Assembly (NCBI GenBank): GCA_948762045.1
Contig: CAQBPW010000043.1
Location: 1 to 31,985, forward strand
Direction of reading: 5' to 3'
Length of the DNA stretch: 31,985 nucleotides
Source of the DNA: an uncultured Lachnospiraceae bacterium
GTDB taxonomy: Bacteria > Bacillota > Clostridia > Lachnospirales > Lachnospiraceae
This document shows positions 1 to 31,985 of this stretch, one piece after another (the first letter of the stretch is position 1; the number at the start of each line of letters is the position of its first letter). The position numbers were made by a program, and so were the translations under genes. The notes under the pieces are model-generated. The model was not told where the DNA came from and did no database searches. It saw only the letters and a list, made by a program, of their open reading frames with translations.

Positions 1-140
1 TGTGTTTAGCCCGCTGTACGGGCGAATTGCACCCCGGTCCGTCCGGCTGGATGTATCTACATTCAAAAGCATTAGACTTTCTTACTTTTTGGAGAGCGGA
101 ACAGTGGCAAGGAATCTTTTCCCCACTCTAGCGTCCCCCC
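1..140 (+). repeat. Family-1 structured palindromic repeat, copy 1a (5' part cut by window edge)
   Basis: tgtgtttagcccgctg(t/c)acgggcgaattgcaccccggtccgtccgg core plus right arm ending ctctagcgtcc; near-identical to copies at 4553, 9182, 15089(rc), 19319. Confidence 0.8.
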
Positions 141-182
141 GCCCACACTATAACACCAAAACCTTTACACCCTATCCCCCTT

Positions 183-1481
183 CTATAAAATATCAATATA
201 TTCCCCAGATAAAGCCTTATTCATACTGCGAACGGCACAAAATTTTCCGCACATCGAACAACTGTCCTCCTGCTCCGGTTTTCGCTCTTCCCGAATCTGC
301 TTCGCCGTTTTTGGATCTATCGCACACTCCCACTGCTTTTCCCAATCCAATTCCCGCCGTGCCTGAGCCATTGCATCATCTAATTCCCTAGCCCCTCGAA
401 TCCCCTTTGCAATATCAGCCGCATGAGCCGCAATTCGGGAAGCTATTATCCCCTGCCGCACATCCTCTAAATTCGGCAAAGCCAAATGCTCCGCCGGAGT
501 TACATAGCACAAAAAAGAAGCTCCCGCCGCTGCCGCAATCGCTCCTCCAATCGCAGCCGTAATATGATCATACCCAGGTGCAATATCGGTTACCAAAGGT
601 CCCAACACATAAAAAGGTGCCCCCATACAGATTGTCTGCTGGATCTTCATATTAGCCGCAATTTGATCCATCGGCATATGCCCGGGACCTTCCACCATTA
701 CCTGCACATCCCTCTCCCAAGCACGTTTTGTTAATTCTCCCAGCCGCACCAATTCTTCTATCTGACAGACATCCGAAGCATCCGCCAAACATCCCGGCCG
801 ACAGGCATCCCCAAGAGAGATCGTAACATCATATTCCCGGCAAATTTCCAAAATTTCATCATAATACTGATAAAACGGATTTTCCTCTCCGGTCATGCAC
901 ATCCAGGCAAATACCAAAGACCCTCCCCGTGATACAATATTCATTTTCCGCTTCTGCGTTCGAATCTGTTCGATTGTCTTTCTGGTAATCCCACAGTGCA
1001 AAGTTACAAAATCTACTCCATCTTCTGCATGAAGCCGAATCACATCTAAAAAGTCCTGTGCACAAAGTGTCGCTAAATCCCGCTGATAGTGAATCACCGC
1101 ATCATAAACCGGTACGGTTCCAATCATTGCCGGACATTCTGCCGTTAATTTTCTCCGAAACGGCTGTGTATCTCCATGGGAAGATAAATCCATAATCGAG
1201 TGAGCACCCATTTCCACTGCTTTTTGTACCTTTTTCATCTCTGCTTCTTTATCTTTACAATCTTTCGAGACTCCCAGATTGACATTGATCTTTGTGCGAA
1301 GCATTGATCCAATCCCTTCTGCATCTAAACAGGCATGATTTTTATTTGCACAGATCACAACTTTTCCCTCCGCTACAAGCGGCATCAGCTCCTCTGCTGT
1401 CATTTGTTCTTTAACCGCAACCGCTTTTAATTGTTCTGTAAGAATCCCTTTCCGTGCAGCTTCCATCTGTGTAGCATACAT
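183..1481 (-). CDS. thiC: Phosphomethylpyrimidine synthase ThiC
   Basis: 432 aa; [15 protein letters not shown] motif, C-terminal CSMCGKFCA radical-SAM-type Fe-S cysteine cluster; AGGAGG RBS upstream of ATG. Confidence 0.93.
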
Positions 1482-1560
1482 TCTTTTTTCCTCCTGCCGA
1501 TTTTTTTAGTTTTTATTTCTTCTCTTATCTAATGTGTTTCCTTCTTATTGTGCCTGTTTT

Positions 1561-2355
1561 CTAATTTTCTAAATTCCACATATGGTTCAATGGACCGTTT
1601 CCATGTCCAAGAAAAATCTCCTTCTGCAATGCTCCGCTGATATATTCTTTTGCCAGCCGCACGCTCTCTTCCAATTCCTTTCCCTTTGCTAAATTAGAAA
1701 CAATCGCTGCACTTAAGGTACATCCTGTTCCATGTGTATTAGAAACATAATATCGTTCTCCGCTTATCCAGATTTTCCGATTTTGTTTTATTTCATAAAG
1801 AAAATCATCTGCATCCTCTGCTGCATGTCCTCCCTTTAACAGAACACTGCATCCATACCGCTGACCCATTTCCACTGCCGCTGCCTCTCTCTCTGCTTTC
1901 CTTTGAATCGTTCTGTTCACTAATCGCTCTGCCTCTAAAAGATTAGGCGTAATCAGTCTTGCCATAGGAAACAATCTCTTTGCCAACTCGGTCTTTCCCT
2001 CTCTGCCTAAAAATTCCGTCCCGCTAGTAGAACCCATAACGGGATCGATAACAAGGTTGTCAGCCTGATAATAGGCAAGCCTTTCTGCAAGGATCGGAAT
2101 CAAACACTTAGAACCAATCATTCCAATCTTTACTGCATCCGGTACAATATCTGTAAAAATACTGTCTATCTGCTGCCTGAAACATTCCTCTGTCACCGGA
2201 CAGACTGCAGACACTCCTCTTGTATTCTGTGCCGTCAAAGCTGTAATCACACTCATTCCATAAACGCCATGCATCGTCATCGTCTTTAAGTCTGCCTGAA
2301 TCCCCGCTCCGCCTGAACAGTCACTTCCCGCTATTGTAAGTGCCGTTTTTATCAT
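1561..2355 (-). CDS. thiD: Hydroxymethylpyrimidine/phosphomethylpyrimidine kinase ThiD (start trimmed to MIKTALTIAG; TAA of thiE then T then ATG)
   Basis: MIKTALTIAGSDCSGGAGIQADLKT N-terminus typical of ThiD/PdxK family; ORF track start 2439 would overlap thiE. Confidence 0.88.
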   Translation of the reverse strand: MIKTALTIAGSDCSGGAGIQADLKTMTMHGVYGMSVITALTAQNTRGVSAVCPVTEECFRQQIDSIFTDIVPDAVKIGMIGSKCLIPILAERLAYYQADNLVIDPVMGSTSGTEFLGREGKTELAKRLFPMARLITPNLLEAERLVNRTIQRKAEREAAAVEMGQRYGCSVLLKGGHAAEDADDFLYEIKQNRKIWISGERYYVSNTHGTGCTLSAAIVSNLAKGKELEESVRLAKEYISGALQKEIFLGHGNGPLNHMWNLEN

Positions 2356-2356
2356 A

Positions 2357-30110: not shown

Positions 30111-30124
30111 TAAGGTACAAAACA

Positions 30125-30264
30125 GCTCGCCCTAAGGGATCTTTCTTTGCAGGGGTATTGCTTCCCGCCGGCACTTAGGCACGGTCTTTTCGTGCCTTAT
30201 GTGTCCGCTGCGAGGAAGCCTTAGTGCAAACGGCCCCAGCAAAGAAAGATCCCTTAGGGCGAGC
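30125..30264 (+). repeat. Long imperfect hairpin element H2 (26-bp perfect outer stem plus the same core as H1, inverted)
   Basis: gctcgccctaagggatctttctttgc [AGGGGTATTGCTTCCCGCCGGCACTTAGGCACGGTCTTTTCGTGCCTTATGTGTCCGCTGCGAGGAAGCCTTAGTGCAAACGGCCCCA] gcaaagaaagatcccttagggcgagc. Confidence 0.9.
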
Positions 30265-30356
30265 GTCAGGACTACCCAAAACAATCCCAAACCACTCCAA
30301 ACAATCGAAACTCTACAATAAATGAAAAACTTAGTATAAAATATATTATACCTATT

Positions 30357-31775
30357 CTATTTATTCTCCGTCTGAGGCAGACTAATCCGTACAAACCGCC
30401 TTAAAAACTCCCGTCCATTAAAAGGAAACAACGGATACAAATAACTCTTTCCCGAAAGCGTGCGATTCTGACAAATACAAAATACCGCAAACAAAATTCC
30501 AAATCCATATCCCCAAACATCCAATATCTGTGTAAGCAGCAAGGTAATCAACCGCATAAACTTAAGTGCAAACCCCAGTTCAAAACTAGGCTGCGAATAA
30601 TTTGCCAACACCACAAAAGCCATATAAAGCATAGACTCCGAATTAAACCACCCCGACTGTACCGCATAATCCCCTAATACTAAACCCGCAATTACACTTA
30701 AAGGCGTACTAAGCATATTAGGTGTATTCACAGCCGCAAGCCGCAACCCATCAATCGCAAATTCCAAAATAATCAACTGCCAAATCAAAGGAACCTGTAT
30801 CTCTTCAGCCGGAAAGATAAACGCAAGCCATTCTGGAACCCACTCTGGATTTTTCATAAGCAACAGCCAAGTAGGTGTCAAAATCATTGTCAAGATCGTA
30901 ATAATAAATCGTGACACTCTAAGATAAGTCCCTGTAACAGGAGGAAAATAATAATCATCCGCTTCCTCTAAAATATCAAATACCGAACAAGGCAGAATCA
31001 TAGCGGAAGGAGAATTATCTACTAAAACCGCAATCCCTCCTTCCAATATCGATGCCGCTGCCGTATCTGGACGCTCGGTATATTTATACTTCGGAAACGG
31101 ATTCCACCATCCCCTTCTATAGAGACATTCCGCCAAACTCTCCTGATTCATAGTCAATGCATCAATATCAATTTTTTTAATCCTCTGAATCAACTCCTTT
31201 AAAAATTCGGGATCGACACGATCTCTCATATAGCAGACAGCTATATCCGTCTTAGAAGAACGCCCCACTGTATAGATCTCATTTGTCAATTCCGTGCTTC
31301 GAATTCGGCGGCGAATTAATGCCGTATTGGATACCATCGTTTCTACAAATCCATCCCTAGAACCACGCATTACCCTGTCTTTTTCCGGTTCCTCTACTCC
31401 CCTTGACGGATAACTTCTGCAGTCAATCAGATAAGCTTCCTGATACCCCTCTACAAACATTGCAACCACACCAGAAAGTACATTTTTTATAATCGTATCC
31501 TCTTTTGTCTCTAACTCCACTTCTAAATAAGACAAATATTTTTTAGAAAATCCTGCTGCATCGGACGGCATATCCTCTTTTTTAATACTAACAAAAGATG
31601 CCATTAACTTCTGCATATCGTCATCTTTTACAAAACCATTTACAAAAAAATAAACTGCATTTCGCTCACCAATCAAAAGTTCTTTATATAAAATATCAAA
31701 ACTATCCTCTGTCCGCAAAAGCTGCTGGAACCGTTTTAAGGTATTTTGAAAATTCAGTTGATCTGTCTTATCCAT
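30357..31775 (-). CDS. Spore germination protein, GerA (GerAA/GerKA/SpoVAF) family; ATG start at MDKTDQ, GTG at 31784 also possible
   Basis: about 470 aa; soluble N-domain followed by 4-5 C-terminal TM helices, typical GerA-family A-subunit architecture and conserved blocks (ALTMNQESLAE, PFPKYKYTERPD). Confidence 0.75.
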   Translation of the reverse strand: MDKTDQLNFQNTLKRFQQLLRTEDSFDILYKELLIGERNAVYFFVNGFVKDDDMQKLMASFVSIKKEDMPSDAAGFSKKYLSYLEVELETKEDTIIKNVLSGVVAMFVEGYQEAYLIDCRSYPSRGVEEPEKDRVMRGSRDGFVETMVSNTALIRRRIRSTELTNEIYTVGRSSKTDIAVCYMRDRVDPEFLKELIQRIKKIDIDALTMNQESLAECLYRRGWWNPFPKYKYTERPDTAAASILEGGIAVLVDNSPSAMILPCSVFDILEEADDYYFPPVTGTYLRVSRFIITILTMILTPTWLLLMKNPEWVPEWLAFIFPAEEIQVPLIWQLIILEFAIDGLRLAAVNTPNMLSTPLSVIAGLVLGDYAVQSGWFNSESMLYMAFVVLANYSQPSFELGFALKFMRLITLLLTQILDVWGYGFGILFAVFCICQNRTLSGKSYLYPLFPFNGREFLRRFVRISLPQTENK

Positions 31776-31935
31776 TCCTCCCACCTTCTCCTTATTTTTT
31801 ATTTTTCTTCAAGATAGTATCTTCTTAATCTATCCGAAATATACAAAATTTAATAAGGAGATTTTTTCCACTCTAAATACTTCATTAAGAAAAAACAGGA
31901 GATTTGTATTTTGTCTTCCCAAAATATAGAACAAG

Positions 31936-31985
31936 TCAAATCGGATATTCGCAATCCGCTTTGCTACTTGCTCATAACCTCATCA
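31936..31985 (+). repeat. Family-2 repeat, 5' part (cut by window end)
   Basis: tcaaatcggatattcgcaatccgctttgctacttgctcataacctcat, identical over 50 nt to 6381-6430. Confidence 0.8.

Follow-up and report, generated by a model that had tools for sequence, protein, structure and literature searches.

Intergenic TwoAYGGAY elements and a sister family in a mouse-gut Lachnospiraceae: copy-specific palindromic arms as a probable covarying closing helix

Based on comparative sequence analysis, we propose an explanation for the long palindromic repeats in a 31,985-nt stretch of DNA (hereafter the window) from an uncultured Lachnospiraceae bacterium (contig CAQBPW010000043.1 of assembly GCA_948762045.1). 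The window belongs to the core chromosome of a mouse-gut Lachnospiraceae and is 99.99-100% identical to contigs of metagenome-assembled genomes (MAGs), for example GCA_948964755.1 and ERZ17811881. Its intergenic DNA holds family 1, present in five copies with a unit of ~265-280 nt, family 2, and the pair of repeats H1 and H2, here called family H (Table 1). A first-pass annotation had described these as three unrelated families, in each of which a conserved core is clamped by copy-specific inverted sequence, and had concluded that a genome-wide process installs or perfects palindromes. The explanation that we favour, with a probability of about 0.6, is that the repeats belong to families of rod-like, highly paired intergenic RNA elements. 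Family 1 is the catalogued Rfam motif TwoAYGGAY (RF01731) and H is built on the same scaffold; the arms would be the covarying closing helix of these RNAs, and no palindrome-installing machine is needed.

The identity of family 1 comes from targeted covariance-model searches, in which three window copies exceed the curated gathering threshold of RF01731 (43 bits; scores in Table 1). A whole-window Rfam search by E-value recovered one TwoAYGGAY copy, and targeted searches were needed as well, the initial misses being due to speed filters. When Rfam default filters are applied to the 32-kb window at gathering thresholds, 0/5 copies are reported, and three of them score at least 20 bits above the cut-off in short stretches. 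In TwoAYGGAY the closing stem, P1, is in many cases very long and close to perfect (Weinberg et al. 2010, PMC2864571, Additional file 1). The arms of family 1, 26-32 nt long and 94-97% complementary, are a long near-perfect P1 of this description; they lie just outside the Rfam model and lengthen its P1 outwards in a copy-specific manner. Two AYGGAY-like motifs are present. CUAGGAU is nearly invariant, UUGGAU is variable (UUGGGU, CUGAAU, UUAGAU and others), neither fits AYGGAY exactly, and both are unpaired in the alifold consensus. Each copy is predicted to fold into a long rod, and for the copy at 4527-4810 the minimum free energy (MFE) is -135 kcal/mol, with z = -12.9. As far as family 1 is concerned, the annotated picture of a conserved core within copy-specific, near-perfect inverted arms was borne out in the five window copies and in their relatives.

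What keeps the two arms of a copy alike? One genome per species was scanned with an invariant 17-mer of the core, which gave 119 loci. Most loci outside the Lachnospiraceae were rejected as chance matches in high-G+C genomes; the true loci are mostly in the MAG MGBC128194 and in a second Lachnospiraceae MAG, often at contig ends. With nhmmer these loci yielded 101 family 1 copies, 47 of them full length. Over 43 full copies from the window and the related MAG, an arm is 0.94 identical to the reverse complement of its partner in the same copy, while identity between copies is 0.51 for arms and 0.85 for cores. The first-pass annotation had put forward an excess of arm-to-arm over copy-to-copy identity as a mark of conversion within hairpins, and the excess is there; it is, however, expected of any covarying RNA helix and alone is no evidence for palindrome-making at the DNA level. 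The consensus fold of 44 aligned copies contains 81 pairs, 46 of which show compensatory double changes. Paired cells amount to 98.6%, against 85.3% in shuffled alignments (0/500 reach the observed value) and 38-47% with slid partners, and the covariation score is 0.381 against 0.134 in the shuffles. Covariation spans the whole rod, beyond the arms. The outer arms are no more perfect (97.7% paired) than the conserved inner stems (97.7-99.2%), and the core shows whole alternative hairpins as well as multi-pair swaps (GGGGTG/CACCCC to GGCACG/CGTGCC).

The non-Watson-Crick cells reveal a preference for one strand. Read on the Rfam-sense strand they comprise 210 G.U and 26 A.C, or 81 and 23 once three G.U pairs that are invariant in 42-43 of the 44 aligned copies are set aside. 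Family 1 falls into two subtypes, a long-arm A type (29-nt arms) and a short-arm B type (23-nt arms), and the same sign is found in both (42 G.U vs 18 A.C in A, 39 vs 5 in B), though they are oppositely oriented to replication. At 32:17, the outer stem is less asymmetric than the inner stems (49:6). A symmetric correction at the DNA level is disfavoured because it would not preserve one-sided wobble pairs, and a replication-strand mutation bias is disfavoured because subtypes facing opposite ways would then show opposite signs. Covariation along the whole rod favours selection on an RNA, and the one-stranded wobble indicates that a single transcript is selected, as opposed to a symmetric process in the DNA. 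The one-stranded wobble also argues against the palindrome-installing process of the earlier account, for which there is no need.

H is a second, uncatalogued RNA family on the family 1 scaffold, and is not unrelated to family 1. The 31-nt arms of the H1 and H2 hairpins (29359-29498 and 30125-30264) are 87% and 97% complementary, respectively, and enclose a 99-nt core in which the two copies are 96% identical. Related genomes hold eight further full copies and two partial ones, which follow the same pattern, with stems of their own of 26-31 nt, a conserved core and a covarying apical hairpin, so that the clamped structure described for H1/H2 was confirmed. No Rfam match better than E=1.6 was found in the region searched, and the sole match that overlaps an H copy (H2) has E=7.7. 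The wobble cells of H (18 G.U vs 2 A.C) lie on the strand equivalent to the Rfam-sense strand of family 1. With the same strand read in each family, GGAC directly precedes the stem and TGT(T/C)T directly follows it; the wobble pairs of both families are on the complementary strand, which reads 5'-ACAG-stem...stem-CGUCC-3'. H doublets (window, L015 and L117) are divergent, as those of family 1 are. H1 and H2 form such a doublet, H2 being convergent with gerA, and half of the H copies are oriented opposite to the A-type arrangement. In a sister species (L217), two slots occupied by family 1 in the window contain H-like remnants. Common stem-flanking motifs, strand logic, divergent doublets and genomic slots contradict the description of family 1 and H as unrelated. 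A search for more families on the GGAC...TGT scaffold returned only family 1, H and a miniature family 1 of 90 nt; the miniature, at L015 1144-1233, is without the core. H1 is directly adjoined by a 22-nt tandem repeat of 2.5 copies (29292-29346), and an 88-aa open reading frame (ORF) without Pfam match lies between H1 and H2, within 29533-29799.

Family 2 is of another kind. It is a nested palindrome, and the annotated behaviour was confirmed only in part: its clamping arms (AACCTCAT/ATGAGGTT and CAAGGAAGT/ACTTCCTTG) are common to the copies, and what varies is which internal hairpin modules are present. The 5' block, TTTAACCT(C)ATCAAGGAAGT, is followed by zero, one or more hairpin modules nested in conserved inverted repeats. 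The 3' block is conserved, and its end, TTGAC(T), corresponds to the -35 of promoter-like sites; in the copy upstream of the NaPRTase gene (pncB), TTGACT in AAGTAGCAAAGCGGATTGCGAATATCCGATTTGACT is the -35 of such a site at 6384-6355. The order of a family 1 or H copy, then family 2, then a promoter-like site, then the next gene is recurrent. In Rfam, the best matches of family 2 are ohsC_RNA (28.1 bits, cut-off 50) and Clostridiales-1 (18.4 bits, cut-off 48), and none is above its cut-off. Among strains that are ~1% divergent elsewhere, the copy at 15371-15419 varies at 9 of its 49 nt, possibly because constraint is relaxed or because other copies convert it ectopically. Indels occur in the long hairpin of the copy upstream of pncB (6464-6490), with a 19-nt deletion in one strain and a 6-nt insertion in several. 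Since family 1 and H share one scaffold and family 2 lacks the behaviour, the argument that a common process is needed to avoid three independent coincidences fails.

Table 1. Intergenic repeats in the window, with positions counted from the first nucleotide of the stretch
Feature	Position	Strand	Arms	Details
Family 1, A type (long-arm), 3' half only	1-147	+		copy cut by window edge; nhmmer E=5.7e-42 against family profile
Family 1, A type	4527-4810	+	4546-4577 / 4761-4792 (P1), 97% complementary	RF01731 66.4 bits at 4580-4757
Family 1, A type	9165-9444	+	9184-9215 / 9396-9427, 94% complementary	RF01731 63.7 bits at 9218-9392
Family 1, B type (short-arm)	15072-15339	-	15090-15115 / 15299-15324, 96% complementary	RF01731 68.2 bits at 15120-15295; same direction as genes, inverted relative to other copies
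Family 1, A type	19302-19583	+	19321-19352 / 19534-19565, 97% complementary	nhmmer E=2.3e-93
H1	29339-29512	- (putative sense strand)	29359-29389 / 29468-29498	MFE -88.9 kcal/mol, z = -10.5 (sense strand)
H2	30113-30283	+ (putative sense strand)	30125-30155 / 30234-30264	MFE -95.9 kcal/mol, z = -11.3
Family 2, short form without internal modules	3847-3901	-		between TPP riboswitch terminator and thiM
Family 2, long form	6379-6543	-		nested palindromes AACCTCAT(CAAGGAAGT[X]ACTTCCTTG)(Y)(Z)ATGAGGTT, then conserved block AAGTAGCAAAGCGGATTGCGAATATCCGATTTGACT; z = -12.4
Family 2, short form, inverted relative to others	15371-15419	+		abuts B-type family 1 copy
Family 2, intermediate form	30000-30114	-		directly after H2; upstream of promoter-like site 29937-29909 and small ORF
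Family 2, cut by window edge	31934-31985	-		100% identical over 50 nt to 6379-6428

The elements keep fixed orientations to their neighbours. Relative to the G-rich, gene-sense strand, A-type copies are found 21 times in the antisense and twice in the sense direction, and B-type copies 14 times in sense and four times in antisense. The A copies of the window begin 19-130 nt past the stop codon of a gene with which they are convergent: the copy at 1-147 lies 36 nt past the stop of thiC and antisense to it, that at 4527-4810 is 19 nt from the stop of the NaPRTase gene, with which it is convergent, and those at 9165-9444 and 19302-19583 are downstream of a PilM-like gene and of an M32 carboxypeptidase gene, respectively. 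In the related MAG there are ~18 family 1 doublets, all of them divergent (5' ends facing), with spacers of 53-1100 nt and typically one A and one B copy. A variant of family 1 with a ~70-nt insertion in the apical region and an arm consensus of its own (CCAGATTCKRRAACRG...) was seen at L015, L019, L058, L066 and L020; all copies sampled from the CBFFYP MAG are of this form, which is also present in MGBC128194.

How might such elements arise and persist? In the outer part of P1 the pairing would be constrained and the sequence free, so that the arms drift and covary, and the three-hairpin core would be held by sequence-specific selection. H is built in the same way, reading 5'-(A-rich)ACAG, long variable stem, conserved core, returning stem and CGUCC-3'. 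Each family is found in two orientations, either just past a stop codon and convergent or co-directional with the genes, often as divergent doublets whose spacer can hold family 2, the modular nested palindrome that ends in promoter-like sequence. Transcription of the elements is probably from the Rfam-sense strand. The other strand of the basal stem, which in A-type copies is followed by UGUUUUUU, may in addition provide the upstream gene with its terminator or 3' hairpin; because the A-type basal stem would then have to pair on both strands, the outer stem could be almost purely Watson-Crick. The logic common to family 1 and H would come from common ancestry or a common scaffold, together with ordinary structural selection.

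Several observations weigh against this account. The copy at 19302 has no Rfam match at E<=0.01 in the targeted search, and it is placed in family 1 by its clear homology to the other copies. The transcribed strand is read solely from the wobble asymmetry, to which transcription-coupled deamination could contribute. The conserved 5' extension of the B copies resembles a TRTG-extended -10, with the exact form in 8/24 copies and a poor one in the B copy of the window; A-type copies yielded no convincing promoter, and on the sense strand no terminator comes after the element. At least 60 copies are present in one fragmented MAG, often at contig ends, which is far above what is usual for a small RNA gene. 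Finally, MGBC128194 and the CBFFYP MAG (dS ~1) carry family 1 in the same slot and orientation with different subtypes; their arms are identical at 10/26 positions and yet each copy is self-paired at 26/26, with four-fold degenerate sites differing at 43-53% between the two genomes. Arm divergence at this slot is at least as fast as the neutral rate. Selection alone, through compensation in place, could hardly achieve this, and either replacement or some accelerating mechanism is implied. Simple in-place compensation explains neither how fast the arms diverge at shared slots nor why the copies are so numerous.

Exchange of cassettes at the common boundaries and generic quasipalindrome correction are therefore retained as less likely explanations. 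The first alternative to be considered is mobility. Family 1 and H might be non-autonomous cassettes, similar to miniature inverted-repeat transposable elements (MITEs) or to repetitive extragenic palindromes (REPs), in which a trans-acting enzyme would recognise the ACAG/CGTCC boundaries at the base of the hairpin, the cores would be cargo, and the arms would be regenerated or diversified at each event. Identical stem-flanking motifs on two different cores, the high copy number and the tendency of assemblies to break at the elements are all in keeping with this idea, as is the turnover between species. Sister species with 85-90% identical PolA are syntenic and have no family 1 copy in ~20 kb of syntenic DNA, compared with five in the 32-kb window; the spacer between the PilM-like gene and the next gene, which holds the copy at 9165-9444 in the window, is 14-18 nt there and 396 nt here. 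One slot contains family 1 here and H remnants in L217, another holds the differing subtypes of MGBC128194 and the CBFFYP MAG, and a ~770-nt doublet present in L015, from one of these two MAGs, is missing from the orthologous spacer in L011, from the other, which is empty and shows no target duplication. Within the species, by contrast, every element is fixed among conspecific strain contigs (7-15 per element, 98.5-100% identical to the window), and differences in presence or absence, such as MITE-type insertion would give, are seen between species. The elements are fixed within the species and turn over between species, by presence or absence and by replacement. Direct repeats that would mark a target-site duplication were found neither at the boundaries of 47 copies nor in the comparisons of filled and empty sites; no two cores are more than 94.7% identical, and with no pair above 95% there is no sign of recent transposition. 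There is no transposase domain in the window, no multi-copy ORF that could be a transposase candidate in 372 kb around the elements, and no true copy in viral contigs, where the core 17-mer gave two chance matches in contigs of 54-56% G+C. The hairpin-targeted transposition suggested by the first-pass annotation finds no backing in these results, and we regard mobile cassettes in general as a possible explanation, clearly second to structured RNAs. The relatives recovered by a metagenome scan with PolA are all at <=61% identity and showed no family 1 or H copy, and orthologues of window genes were not found among the MGBC128194 loci searched. Sister species (L218, L222) also lack an FtsX-like permease gene, the tRNA-Leu(caa) gene and the adjacent family 2 and B-type family 1 copies (15600-18254); there QueH is followed after ~415 nt by a zf-HC2 gene.

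A second alternative places the cause in the DNA itself. Template switching of the nascent strand in quasipalindromes, or mismatch correction in extruded hairpins, might copy one arm onto the other, so that arms would diverge between copies at the neutral rate and still remain self-complementary; the mechanism would be generic and would call for no dedicated enzyme. Quasipalindrome template-switch mutagenesis is established in E. coli (the Ripley model and the reporters of the Lovett laboratory), converts imperfect into perfect inverted repeats and is documented for short arms and short loops. It resembles the behaviour that the first-pass annotation had postulated, and differs in being a general mutational bias and not a system. 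The almost purely Watson-Crick arms fit this view, and so does the mismatch asymmetry of the outer stem, much weaker than that of the inner stems. The arms at the slot shared by MGBC128194 and the CBFFYP MAG, with 16/26 differences and full pairing, would also be accommodated. Variation among strains provides a further point on this side. Five changes are seen in the arms: 9211 creates a mismatch, 9412 and 15106 toggle between mismatch and pair, and 9201 C>A with 9410 G>T, in the copy at 9165-9444, is a compensatory pair of transversions from C-G to A-T within a species that is <1.5% divergent, reached through a non-wobble C.T intermediate that still segregates in five contigs. The strain data speak on the other side as well, for single-arm mismatches persist in several strains (9211, 9412 and 15106, and 9410 in the L229 lineage), and arms are less polymorphic than flanks (5/244 nt, or 2.0%, against 21/~333 nt, or 6.3%; the core has 6/727 nt), which suggests constraint rather than neutral drift with conversion. 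Wobble pairs are strongly one-stranded, with the three near-invariant G.U pairs among them, a 180-nt core separates the arms, and family 2 is without the behaviour. The strand-specific wobble and the persisting single-arm polymorphisms mean that quasipalindrome correction cannot be the main force here; template switching, one of the processes first proposed, may be a contributor. As a full account, a DNA-level process appears unlikely, slightly more so than mobility. A test by the ratio of transitions to transversions among arm differences was abandoned, as strain polymorphism already runs at ~6.5:1 in favour of transitions.

Could the elements simply be oversized intrinsic terminators, or hairpins that stabilise 3'-untranslated regions (3'-UTRs), acting only on the gene-sense transcript? 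Selection for 3'-UTR structure had been one of the options offered at the outset. The position of A-type copies shortly after stop codons would suit such a role. An A6 run precedes P1 in A copies only and places UGUUUUUU directly after the stem on the gene-sense strand, where the A-type copies read GGCUGUUUUUU. In sister species L218, the slot after the M32 gene, which holds a family 1 copy in the window, contains an ordinary intrinsic terminator, and the recurrent order of family 1 or H, family 2, promoter and next gene agrees with an end-of-gene function. On the gene-sense strand of A copies, though, the G.U cells (42 variable, 72 invariant) are A.C mismatches; B-type and half of the H copies are reversed, B-type and most H copies having a weak U-tract or none; and a conserved 180-nt three-hairpin core would be superfluous for termination. 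Of the processes first proposed, selection for structure is closest to the evidence, but the effect is not simply one of 3'-UTR structure, since in most copies the strand under selection runs antisense to the upstream gene. A role as terminators alone strikes us as improbable.

More speculative is a combination of replacement and copying, in which family 1 and H, and possibly other families, would be cassettes of one undescribed Lachnospiraceae system with the boundary 5'-ACAG / CGUCC-3', exchanged slot by slot, the stem being rebuilt by templated copying of one arm. If true, cassette exchange would explain why arms at orthologous slots are unrelated yet perfectly paired, why different cores have the same termini and why target duplications are missing; we consider it a long shot, a little behind the terminator reading. 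Insertion of a mobile core into the loops of pre-existing, locus-specific palindromes such as terminators, the arms being old target DNA, would account for arms that are copy-specific and for elements located where terminators are expected, but is rejected as very improbable, since the variable segment is internal to the repeat unit, with conserved CAGCCAGAGT ... ACTCTGGCGTCC on its two sides and 5' extensions of 20-60 nt outside, and since the arms of different copies align to a consensus in two length classes.

The window in which these elements reside is otherwise ordinary. All coding sequences, the tRNA and the riboswitch had been assigned to the minus strand, and they are there: 21/21 long ORFs (20 with Pfam support, the exception being the 88-aa ORF), tRNA-Leu(caa) at 15648-15731 and the thiamine pyrophosphate (TPP) riboswitch at 4187-4297. 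Housekeeping genes include thiCDEM behind the TPP riboswitch, pncB, polA, coaE, queH, a rodA-pbp fusion, ruvAB, zapA, gerA and others. The GC skew of the plus strand is -0.14 to -0.47 over the entire window, so that the genes lie on the G-rich strand. Third codon positions contain 6.6% C and 31.9% G (skew 0.66), and C makes up 8.9% of the gene-sense strand in non-repeat intergenic DNA (18255-18495 and 19165-19300). Co-orientation of genes with replication is the usual state of Firmicutes chromosomes. The proposed leading-strand co-orientation is a fair reading of genes on the G-rich strand and of the strong skew, and because it is normal in Firmicutes the strand bias is not a finding; 21 successive same-strand genes, many of them in operons, are unremarkable, and only the size of the skew (GC3 skew 0.66) is extreme. 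Downstream of a family 1 copy, at ~19165-19300, the gene-sense strand is nearly free of C, and balanced G and C in intergenic DNA are confined to the structured repeats. The riboswitch and a terminator-like hairpin (4185-4155) lie ~340 nt upstream of the thiM start, with a short family 2 copy in between. A 66-nt unit in 2.6-3 tandem copies (within 4358-4555) separates the riboswitch from a family 1 copy, and ~10 single-nucleotide polymorphisms in this array separate strain lineages. A 34-nt unit in 3.3 tandem copies (within 19573-19685), G-rich on the gene-sense strand, lies between the M32 gene and its family 1 copy; the M32-QueH spacer ranges from 511 to 620 nt among strains. Two proteins stand out. 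An 812-aa protein (6654-9092, minus strand) matches the Major-Vault-Protein shoulder, Vault_3 repeats and an SPFH/Band-7 domain, a combination unusual for a bacterium, and its gene is absent from L222 and L221; a single ORF of 922 aa (21852-24620, minus strand) fuses an FtsW/RodA/SpoVE domain to a penicillin-binding transpeptidase.

How do the elements compare with known systems? REP elements and bacterial interspersed mosaic elements (BIMEs), the REPINs of E. coli, ERIC, the Correia elements of Neisseria and pneumococcal BOX/RUP are high-copy palindromic intergenic repeats, often at the 3' ends of genes. Repeats of the REP/BIME and MITE type occur as subtypes whose alternating orientation gives doublets, may contain promoter or terminator signals, and are present in some related species but not in others. 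Family 1 and H are similar in being intergenic, high-copy and palindromic, in forming doublets and in differing in presence between species. They differ in unit length (150-280 nt vs 20-150 nt), in a complex multi-hairpin core, in hypervariable stems and in strand-specific wobble, and, within the window and the flanking DNA sampled, no target duplication, near-identical copies or RAYT/transposase accompany them. Although alternating doublets are present, units of 150-280 nt with a complex core are not the 20-40-nt palindrome with a conserved 5' tetranucleotide that characterises REP/BIME repeats.

With small RNAs of the CsrB/RsmY type, family 1 shares two GGA-containing motifs, the nearly invariant CUAGGAU and the variable UUGGAU, that flank the apical hairpins. 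It departs from them in offering only two sites per RNA, the first of which can be sequestered in a small stem of the predicted fold. Binding or titration of CsrA has been proposed for TwoAYGGAY (Gardner & Eldai 2014, PMC4333381); the window contains no csrA gene.

The nearest comparison is with TwoAYGGAY itself. Its P1 is very large and poorly conserved (Weinberg et al. 2010, PMC2864571) and its outer stem 'not well conserved' (Gardner & Eldai 2014, PMC4333381). Family 1 agrees with the motif in scoring above the curated threshold, in its very long P1 and in its host, a gut Clostridia member, which is the main habitat of the motif. It goes beyond the descriptions in PMC2864571 and PMC4333381 in having two subtypes of opposite fixed orientation to genes and replication, divergent doublets and five copies per 32 kb, and beyond the Rfam model in its conserved 5' extensions and CGUCC 3' flank; the second 'GGA' motif is only moderately conserved in family 1. 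TwoAYGGAY has been an orphan RNA motif since 2010. What is new is that in some gut Lachnospiraceae it is a high-copy intergenic element in fixed orientation to genes, that it comes in two subtypes arranged in divergent doublets, and that a sister family combines another core with the same scaffold. These features narrow the functional hypotheses to three, namely a protein sponge, a mobile cassette or an independently transcribed small RNA that possibly doubles as terminator for the convergent gene, and concrete predictions of strand and boundaries for transcriptome data follow from them.

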